Below, one piece after another: positions 1 through 4,952 of a stretch of DNA of 64,000 nucleotides (within the stretch, counting starts at the first letter, position 1; every line of letters starts with the position of its first letter). The DNA is taken from the sequence record OY726582; one strand, written 5' to 3'. The translations under genes were made by a program, and so were the position numbers. The stretch comes from Escherichia phage vB_Eco_NicPhage. Under the pieces are notes generated by a model. The model was not told the origin of the DNA. It saw only the letters and a program-made list of their open reading frames with translations, and did no database searches.

Positions 1-240
<240 letters not shown>

Positions 241-241
241 T

Positions 242-877
242 ATGGCAACATACTACAGATTGTATATTACAACATTTGAAACATCCACCGGTATAAAGAT
301 TTATGGTGGTAAACACAAATCAGTTTACGAAGACCCTTCAAAAGACCCTTATACTGGGTCTGGTACCTTTATACGAAGGGCCAAAAGAAAATACGGTCCG
401 TCTTGTATAAAAGAAATTATATGGTCTAAGCCATTTGAATCTAAAGCTCTAATGGACGAAGCTGAAGAGTTACTGGTAGATGAATTATCCATTTTAGAAA
501 ATTGCGCAAATCTTGTTAAAGGTGGTGCAGGCGGAAGGTCGTATATTAACCCAGAAGATAATCCATCTATAGGACAAAAACGTTCAGCCCAATCTAAAAA
601 GAAAATGTCTGACGCCGCAAAATCAAGAAAATGGACTGAAGAAGGGTTAAGAAAACGTAAAGAATCTACAGCAAGAATGTGGAAAGATTTCAAACATAGA
701 CATCCTGATTTTTCTGGTTCAAAAAATCCGGCAGCTCGAAAAGTTAGTGTAAATGGTAAAATATTTAACACCTGCAAAGAATGTGGTGAAGAATTTAATA
801 TCACATCAAGCGCGGTTATAGGCCGATGCAAAAACAACAAACCTAAATGGGCAGGATGGAATTATGTCGACGTATAA
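242..877 (+). CDS. free-standing GIY-YIG homing endonuclease (Seg-like)
   Basis: 211-aa ORF; N-terminal YRLYIT...KIYGGKH and [16 protein letters not shown] motifs match the GIY-YIG/Seg pattern also seen in the 18205 ORF; basic C-terminal region; inserted between genes 13 and 14 and overlaps gene 14 start by 14 nt. Confidence 0.7.
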
Positions 878-1628
878 TTCAAATTTATTTGCAAAGTTAG
901 AAAACCGAGAAGGCTATTCTAAAACTAATGAAACCGAGATTTTAAACAAATACGTGAACTTCAACAAATACGAAAATAGTCAAACCCTAGCTGATGTGTT
1001 AGTAGCAGAAAGCATACAGATGCGCGGTATTGAATGTTTTTATGTTCCACGTGAATATGTTGCCGTGGACCTTATCTTTGGTGAGGACCTTAAAAATAAA
1101 TTTACTAAAGCATGGAAATTTGCTGCATATCTGAACTCTTTTGAAGGTTATGAAGGAGCGAAATCGTTCTTCAGCAACTTCGGAATGCAAGTTCAAGACG
1201 AAGTTACATTATCTATTAACCCAGGTCTTTTCAAACACCAGGTCAACAATCAGGAGCCTAAGGAAGGTGATTTAATATACTTCCCAATGGACAACAGTTT
1301 GTTTGAGATTAACTGGGTTGAACCATATGACCCATTCTATCAAGTAGGTAAAAATGCGATTCGTAAAATTACTGCAGGCAAGTTTATTTACTCTGGCGAA
1401 GAAATCAATCCGGTGCTTCAGAAAAATGAAGGTATCAATATACCTGAATTTAGTGACTTGGAACTTAACCCTGTTAGAAATCTTGACGGTATCCATGACA
1501 TTAATATCGATGAATATTCTGAAGTTGAGCAAATCAATTCAGAGGCAAGTGAATACGTTGAGCCGTATGTAGTAGTTAACAACCGTGGTAGACAAAATTC
1601 ACCATTTGACGATGGGTTTATGAATTAA
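864..1628 (+). CDS. 14: neck protein gp14
   Basis: 254-aa ORF, T4 gp14-like length and position upstream of gene 15. Confidence 0.8.
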
Positions 1629-1677
1629 TAAATAGATAAGATAAAGCAAACACCGGTCGAAAGGCCGGTTAGGAGAA

Positions 1678-2629
1678 ATGATGTTTGGTTATTTTTACAA
1701 CTCGTCGTTCAGGCGATATATCACAATGATGGGCGATTTGTTTTCAAATATCCAAGTTAACCGTCAATTGTCTACAGGCAATAAATTAATTAGAGTTCCT
1801 ATTACGTATGCATCTAAAGAGCACTTTATGATGAAACTTAATAAATGGACCTCTATAAACTCACAAGAAGATGTGGCTAAAGTCGAAACTATTCTACCAC
1901 GTATAAATCTCCAAATGGTGGATTTCGTTTATAACCCAACGTTTAAAACGAATATATTGAATAACTCTCTTTTGAGTAAATCGACTAAGGATATTGTAGA
2001 CCAATACAACCCATCACCAATTAAAATGATTTTTGAACTGAGCATCTTTACTCGTTATGAAGATGATATGTTCCAAATCGTTGAGCAAATTATTCCATAT
2101 TTTCAGCCGCATTTTAATACGACTATGATTGAGCAATATGGGCAGGATATTCCATTTGAAAGGGATATTAAAGTCGTATGGATGGCAGCAGCAATGGATG
2201 AACAAATAGACGGTGATAATTTATCTCGTCGACGTTTAGAGTGGTCATTAACATTTGAAGTAAATGGATGGATGTATCCTCCGGTAGGCGCAGCTGAAGG
2301 CCTTATTAAAACGACTTATCTTGATTTTCATGCTAAACGGTGATAATTTATCTCGTCGACGTTTAGAGTGGTCATTAACATTTGAAGTAAATGGATGGAT
2401 GTATCCTCCGGTAGGCGCAGCTGAAGGCCTTATTAAAACGACTTATCTTGATTTTCATGCTAATGAACGAGACCTTCAAACAGCCGCCAGTGTTTTTGAA
2501 TCAGTTGATACAGAAATTAAACCGAGAGACGTTGAAGCACAAGATTGGAATGGTGAAGTTGAACAAACTTATACTCATGATATTCCAATCCCGTCTCCAC
2601 CAACCCCTCCTGGTCCTAGAAAACAATAA
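1678..2629 (+). pseudogene. 15: tail sheath stabiliser/completion protein gp15, frameshifted by a 127-bp tandem duplication
   Basis: ORF 1678..2343 (221 aa) ends at TGA created at the duplication junction; the rest of the gp15 C-terminus continues in another frame to 2629; removing one copy gives one ~274-aa ORF matching T4 gp15 length. Confidence 0.75.
2210..2463. repeat. perfect direct tandem duplication, 2 x 127 bp
   Basis: 2210-2336 and 2337-2463 are identical base for base; flanking bases differ, so the boundaries are exact. Confidence 0.95.
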
Positions 2630-2638
2630 GAGGTAAAT

Positions 2639-4952
<2,314 letters not shown>

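Follow-up and report, generated by a model that had tools for sequence, protein, structure and literature searches.

The window, by which we mean the entire 64,000-nt stretch of Escherichia phage vB_Eco_NicPhage DNA (sequence record OY726582) that was analyzed, begins within the neck genes of a T-even phage. Megablast places it in the genus Mosigvirus (RB69-like T-even phages), with Escherichia phage 308Ecol101PP as the closest record (99.6%); in this relative, the gene corresponding to our gene 13 is annotated as gp13. One base after the TAA stop codon of gene 13, the ATG codon at position 242 opens an ORF for a 211-residue protein, and the distal end of this ORF overlaps gene 14 by exactly 14 nt (864–877). 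It is flanked by two distinct genes, 13 and 14, each of them a complete ORF of its own (Table 1). A preliminary description of this DNA had already placed a 211-residue ORF between genes 13 and 14, with its last 14 nt extending over the start of gene 14, and had stated that the two neck genes are adjacent in T4. Our reading of the ORFs bears out these coordinates, and a single base indeed separates genes 13 and 14 in T4 (TAA-T-ATG).

We judge the ORF to be a genuine gene and not a chance reading frame, since it recurs with 99–100% identity in 12 public phage records and has full-length homologues of 53–64% identity in which its motifs are conserved. An antisense ORF of 163 codons with a TTG start (349–840, minus strand) is wholly contained in it and is presumed to be spurious. 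T-even phages are known from textbooks for their free-standing Seg endonucleases, and it is to this class of enzymes that the gene very probably belongs: we regard it as a free-standing (not intron-borne) T4 Seg-type GIY-YIG homing endonuclease gene that is present as an optional insertion and whose homing we infer. As such, it is a new, uncharacterized member of a well-known class, and about a dozen public genomes of phages already have this gene annotated as an endonuclease. The endonuclease gene on its own matters little, being real but ordinary.

Table 1. Features at the junction between genes 13 and 14; positions are those of the window.
Feature	Position	Strand	Details
Gene 13, 3' end (neck / head-tail adaptor)	1–240	+	Stop codon TAA 238–240; PHROG 211, head-tail adaptor Ad2, 3.2e-13
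Ancestral gene 14 translation start, now that of the endonuclease	233–244	+	TAGG, 5-nt spacer, ATG 242–244
Homing endonuclease ORF	242–877	+	ATG start, 211 aa, TAA stop 875–877
GIY-YIG nuclease domain, N-terminal	242–535	+	Residues ~1–98; Tyr8, Tyr21, Gly23, Glu75, Asn90
NUMOD3-like linker motif	554–610	+	Residues 105–123; Pfam NUMOD3 6e-3, below threshold; NUMOD3 in 19 of 35 relatives
I-TevI-type helix-turn-helix DNA-binding domain, C-terminal	716–865	+	Residues 159–208
Replacement gene 14 start	853–866	+	AGGA 853–856, 7-nt spacer, ATG 864–866; read from the sequence
Gene 14 (neck protein / head closure)	864–1628	+	254 aa; Pfam T4_neck-protein 2e-127; PHROG 679
Recoded tract, gene 14 5' end	867–911	+	Gene 14 nt 4–48; 16 substitutions relative to the empty allele

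Members of the GIY-YIG superfamily are characterized by two N-terminal motifs with a conserved Tyr, which lie about 10–12 residues apart on adjacent beta-strands, by a catalytic Glu (E75 in I-TevI), by an Asn with a structural or catalytic role (N90), and by a conserved Arg on the first helix (R27 in I-TevI). In the ORF protein, the counterparts of the GIY and YIG motifs are R-L-Y8 and I-Y21-G-G23, which align to Y6 and Y17-x-G19 of I-TevI, and in the profile alignment its residues E75 and N90 fall onto E75 and N90 of I-TevI. The AlphaFold structure model has strands at residues 4–14 and 17–27, and the protein displays the alpha/beta fold of the GIY-YIG superfamily. Y21, G23, K50, Y51, E75, N90, G94 and G95 are invariant across an alignment of 35 relatives. 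The catalytic Arg has no clear counterpart: the segment around I-TevI R27 appears as an insertion in the profile alignment, and the model has a loop at residues 28–41 where helix alpha1 is expected. K24, K26 and R46 are candidate basic residues.

The HMM search for the GIY-YIG domain suggested in the preliminary description, when taken literally, was negative: in a single-sequence scan of the ORF protein against Pfam and NCBIfam, neither GIY-YIG model (PF01541 or PF19835) matched at E ≤ 1, and the matches obtained were sub-threshold, namely I-TevI_DNA-bd (1e-4), NUMOD3 (6e-3) and, in the C-terminal half of the protein, TIGR01453 (4e-6; 27 bits vs a cutoff of 56). The corresponding single-sequence search of the PDB sequences returned noise, plus a weak match to 1i3j. 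With a search profile derived from 12 close homologues, proteins that carry PF01541 or PF19835 come within reach, and these two models are matched by 15 and 13, respectively, of the 35 aligned relatives; the I-TevI_DNA-bd and NUMOD3 modules are weak on the single sequence but significant by profile. The alignment profile also finds the catalytic domain (1ln0; 1.2e-9, residues 4–92) and the DNA-binding domain (1i3j; 2.7e-6) of I-TevI. Together with the match of the ORF protein to PHROG 314 "homing endonuclease" (2.6e-37) and its end-to-end identity of 33% to T4 SegC (2e-16 in the pairwise comparison), these results sustain the earlier designation of the ORF as Seg-like and GIY-YIG.

I-TevI is the endonuclease of the td intron of T4, with PDB entries for its catalytic (1ln0/1mk0) and its DNA-binding domain (1i3j/1t2t). 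It resembles the ORF protein in that a GIY-YIG nuclease is followed by a long linker and a C-terminal helix-turn-helix, and both domains were recovered by profile and fold search. The two proteins differ in that I-TevI is encoded inside an intron whereas the window gene is not, in that the linker of the ORF protein shows no evident zinc finger, and in that our model has a loop in the place of helix alpha1, the helix with R27 and H31 in I-TevI. T4 SegC, the gene for which sits between genes 5.1 and 5.3, has the same succession of motifs as the ORF protein, IY..KIYxG.HK...D.Y.GSG..I..A.KKYG ... E ... N..GG, followed by NUMOD3 and an I-TevI-type helix-turn-helix, and its sequence layout in the region of I-TevI R27 is the same, including the "HK" that follows the YxG motif. 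Like the window gene, the gene for SegC is free-standing between conserved genes, but its insertion site, and presumably its target, are different; furthermore, SegC passes the PF19835 threshold while the ORF protein does not. SegC is listed among the active free-standing GIY-YIG enzymes (Edgell et al., 2010, Table 1; PMC2988022).

How the endonuclease gene is seated between the neck genes can be read from an alignment of the window with the carrier L001 and with the empty-site relative BEU50 (L002). Up to the junction, the identity of the flanks is about 99%, with 3 differences to the empty-site allele in 249 nt on the upstream side, and the net extra DNA in comparison with the empty-site relative amounts to 622 nt, i.e., the ORF minus its overlap. 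In the empty allele, gene 14 begins with TAA-T-ATG GCA ACT TAT GAT, whereas in the window the same TAA-T-ATG GCA AC opens the endonuclease (M-A-T-Y-Y-R-L-Y) instead. We deduce from this that the endonuclease took over the former ribosome site and start codon of gene 14; both proteins begin with M-A-T-Y. At their 13/14 junction, Mosigvirus phages with an empty site, T4 and Kanagawavirus phages have the sequence TTGGTAGGTTAATATGGC(A/T)AC. Most homologues of the endonuclease begin with M-(F/H/Q/K)-(F/Y)-Y-R-L-Y and are started from a spacer of their own. The notion that the ORF is inserted between genes 13 and 14 consequently stands as far as its position is concerned, but the insertion is not a clean one, as its left edge falls within codons one to four of gene 14 in its ancestral form.

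At the other end of the insertion, the ATG codon of gene 14 spans the Tyr208 codon of the endonuclease and one base of the codon after it, within the conserved C-terminal W-N-Y of the enzyme, and the AGGA preceding it probably serves as the gene 14 ribosome-binding site. A purine-rich GGA(A/G)GGA ... T(A/T)TATG arrangement was found in all family members examined, with an overlap of 8 or 14 nt. Nothing statistically notable was seen in terms of RNA structure at the start site of either the endonuclease or gene 14. An 8-bp hairpin at 859–880 (GAAUUAUG / UAUAAUUC, loop UCGACG) encloses the gene 14 AUG and the endonuclease UAA; it is statistically indistinguishable from shuffles, and gene 14 initiation could through it be coupled to translation of the endonuclease.

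A presence/absence comparison of the 13–14 junction across T4-like genomes reveals the scattered occurrence envisaged in the preliminary description. Among the approximately 152 phage records of Mosigvirus that match the flanks at ≥95% identity, 12 cover the ORF (11 phages, as F2 is listed twice), and the gene is thus absent from about 92% of the close relatives. In the other records, gene 14 follows directly upon gene 13. This empty 13/14 junction is represented by 141 records at ≥95% identity and by about 500 more, including T4, at 80–90%. Given the near-identity of the gene among its carriers, the 12 records may represent few independent transfer events. When the Mosigvirus records are ranked by flank identity on either side of the gene, carriers and non-carriers are interleaved, a pattern that is better explained by transfer or recombination than by one clean clade, without constituting proof.

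Outside of Mosigvirus, full-length homologues of 204–214 aa and 53–64% identity occur in the gene order wac-13-HEG-14-15 in Gaprivervirus (RZ), Slopekvirus (phT4A) and Klebsiella T4-like phages (Kiwi_ER50). The same order is present in six metagenomic or genomic contigs, those encoding P0002, P0003, P0005, P0007, P0008 and P0009, which include the cultured phage vB_EcoM_G37-3, whose protein is identical to that of G5211. In the RZ, phT4A, Kiwi_ER50 and six contig loci, the overlap of the endonuclease gene with gene 14 is 8 or 14 nt. The 'segC' or endonuclease genes of Shigella phage SP18, vB_EcoM_RZ, phT4A, Klebsiella phage Kiwi_ER50 and G5211 have the same locus and orientation as the window gene (55–60% identity) and overlap the gene 14 start likewise (8 or 14 nt). 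They differ in that the junction endonucleases of other genera are followed by other gene 14 N-termini; the M-A-T-Y start is found only in the window, RZ and P0007. Among the cultured-phage matches at E ≤ 1e-30 (n = 44), a neck (head-closure) gene lies under the match in all annotated records but three; six more cultured-phage records are without annotation under the match.

These findings bear on the question whether the gene still encodes an active enzyme. It seems unlikely to us that the ORF specifies a decayed or domesticated endonuclease that no longer cuts DNA and is kept for the ribosome site and start codon which it provides to gene 14, or as a DNA-binding regulator. A loss of activity would be in line with the failure of the ORF protein to match a GIY-YIG model directly and with the catalytic Arg for which there is no clear counterpart, and the dual-coded 3' end of the gene would make its clean loss costly. 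Yet, the active-site Tyr, Tyr, Glu and Asn residues are invariant across both the 53–64%-identical and more distant homologues, the full-length ORF is intact in every copy seen, and the motif layout is that of T4 SegC, which is reported to be active. Moreover, the patchy spread of the gene on interleaved backgrounds argues for ongoing mobility.

The same distribution might alternatively be attributed to an ancestral accessory gene that was lost by deletion from most Mosigviruses and from T4, and hence not to a mobile insertion. The presence of homologues at the 13/14 junction in many genera is compatible with such a history, and so is the moderate correlation between the identity of the endonuclease and that of its flanks (r = 0.58 with gp13 and 0.72 with gp14). 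We nevertheless consider it very unlikely. The empty junction TAATATGGC(A/T)ACTTATGAT is common to Mosigvirus, T4 and Kanagawavirus, and independent deletions would neither regenerate a common empty junction nor restore gene 14 codons 2–16. In close pairs, the endonuclease is far more diverged than the genes next to it: between the window and the P0007 contig, gp13 and gp14 are 85% and 90% identical but the endonuclease 58%, and between phT4A and Kiwi, both gp13 and gp14 are 99% identical but the endonuclease 74%. Divergence of the endonuclease is thus decoupled from that of its flanks. Furthermore, two unrelated endonucleases reside at the 13/14 junction elsewhere, an HNH enzyme in the phages NR1 and Pu-Krd-SF1, and a Seg protein of 28% identity ('segC') in Phi1. 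From these comparisons, the 13/14 junction emerges as a hotspot that has repeatedly served as a landing site, with at least three different endonucleases found there among the T4-like genera.

The HNH-type gene (Pfam HNH_4, 270 aa) of the Tequatroviruses Escherichia phage vB_Eco_NR1 (L010 691–1503) and Pu-Krd-SF1 (L011 691–1503) shares the junction with the window gene but belongs to an unrelated nuclease family. It overlaps the end of gene 13 by 4 nt, and the T4-like 5' end of gene 14 stays identical to that of T4. In Phi1, a 66-nt spacer (L006 1435–1500) between gene 13 and 'segC' contains a promoter-like TTGACT...TATGAT pair and also, shortly before a GGAG ribosome site, an inverted repeat, GTTCTCGT...ACGAGAAC. 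Unlike the window gene, Phi1 'segC' could therewith have a regulated expression signal of its own.

That the ORF is an intron-encoded endonuclease, as some annotations in GenBank ('intron-associated endonuclease', 'group I intron endonuclease') and the weak TIGR01453 match in its C-terminal half would have it, or else a conserved structural gene, can practically be dismissed, since no Rfam family, including the group I introns, matches window positions 1–3200 at E ≤ 1, genes 13 and 14 each have a complete ORF of their own with the endonuclease ORF between them, and a gene so sporadic, absent from about 92% of close relatives, is not a structural component conserved in all of them. Based on the Rfam result, we regard the gene as free-standing and the intron-related labels as misnomers.

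No T4 late promoter (TATAAATA) is present in window positions 1–4947 or in the 5.6-kb L001 relative locus; matches to it with one mismatch were at chance level, and so was the outcome of a scan for sigma-70 promoters and terminators. As it is without a late promoter of its own, the endonuclease gene presumably depends on a longer late transcript that also covers the neck genes. In window positions 4948–60390, the T4 late promoter core TATAAATA has 19 exact matches vs 7.4 expected, with 14 of the 19 on the plus strand.

In addition to the insertion itself, the carriers are set apart by a recoded tract in the 5' end of gene 14, with synonymous changes in eight codons and non-synonymous ones in four relative to the empty allele. 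Differences in gene 14 amount to 16 of 51 positions in the tract region vs 5 of 714 in the remainder (Fisher p = 2e-16), and this version of the tract is confined to the 12 endonuclease-carrying records. A second diverged patch, as it might mark a distant cleavage site, was found neither in the 1.7 kb upstream nor in the 3.2 kb downstream. No donor of the tract was detected among all fetched loci or by blastn, the best matches being 39 of 51 positions, and 86% over 42 nt to a Kanagawavirus gene 14. The tract is likely to represent a self-immunity or a co-conversion tract, two readings that are compatible with each other; it could also simply be donor DNA that was dragged in with the endonuclease gene.

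Because a carrier must differ from the target of its own enzyme, and differences nearby are concentrated in the tract and the insertion alone, the empty junction plus gene 14 codons 1–16 are the likely candidate for the recognition site. In T4, the cleavage site of a free-standing endonuclease usually lies hundreds to thousands of bp away from the gene of the enzyme (PMC2988022), and the placement of the target at the adjacent recoded tract is for this reason a guess.

The behavior of the enzyme family and the comparison of the alleles suggest the following course of events. In a mixed infection, the endonuclease would bind to the endonuclease-free 13/14 region of a related phage and introduce a double-strand break, for which the empty junction and codons 1–16 of gene 14, or their vicinity, are the most likely place. 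Repair of this break from the genome of the carrier would then copy in the endonuclease gene and, along with it, neighboring neck-gene markers, thereby causing a localized marker exclusion. The DNA of the carrier itself should escape cleavage because its site is split by the insertion and recoded. Cleavage, the position of the target, homing and marker exclusion are all derived here from what is typical of the family and from the differences between the alleles.

Gene 14 is an essential neck gene. With the ribosome site and ATG of gene 14 in use by the endonuclease, and the replacement encoded within its own C-terminal codons, one may tentatively speculate that the endonuclease has become entrenched, a form of addiction-like retention that would be separate from homing. 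The codons that hold the replacement start specify the conserved K-W-x-x-W-N-Y, which is found family-wide and in several genera. Should entrenchment be true, most simple deletions of the endonuclease gene would silence gene 14, and translation of gene 14 may be coupled to termination of endonuclease translation 11 nt downstream of the gene 14 ATG. The locus offers a compact example of a selfish gene that re-wires the translation start of an essential neighbor.

The carriers and their empty-site relatives represent a natural pair of alleles, with flanks that are 99% identical and that differ only by the 622-nt insertion and the 45-nt recoded tract. This pair should be usable for mapping the target and for a test of self-immunity. 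With respect to phage therapy cocktails that contain Mosigvirus members, a biased inheritance of neck-gene markers is predicted in mixed infections.

Two minor observations concern DNA outside of the junction. On a metagenomic contig (L019 2501–3310), the gene for P0018 has only the N-terminal nuclease domain in common with the window gene (44% identity over 58% of the query); the C-terminal region of P0018 is different, and the gene is located downstream of nrdD/nrdG-like genes and not at the 13/14 junction. This constellation resembles a domain shuffling that would retarget the nuclease, and it fits with a role of the C-terminal domain in setting the target. The second observation pertains to gene 15 (tail sheath stabilizer) of the window, in which 127 nt are duplicated in tandem (2207–2460; copies at 2207–2333 and 2334–2460, 99% identical). 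Since 127 cannot be divided by 3, the duplication breaks gene 15 up into two ORFs (1678–2343 and 2321–2629), whereas the closest records have an intact gene 15 of 822 nt. The contiguous duplication junction is present in no record among 50,697 phages, and the duplication reflects an artefact of assembly or else a true mutant, which would probably be lethal or rescued.
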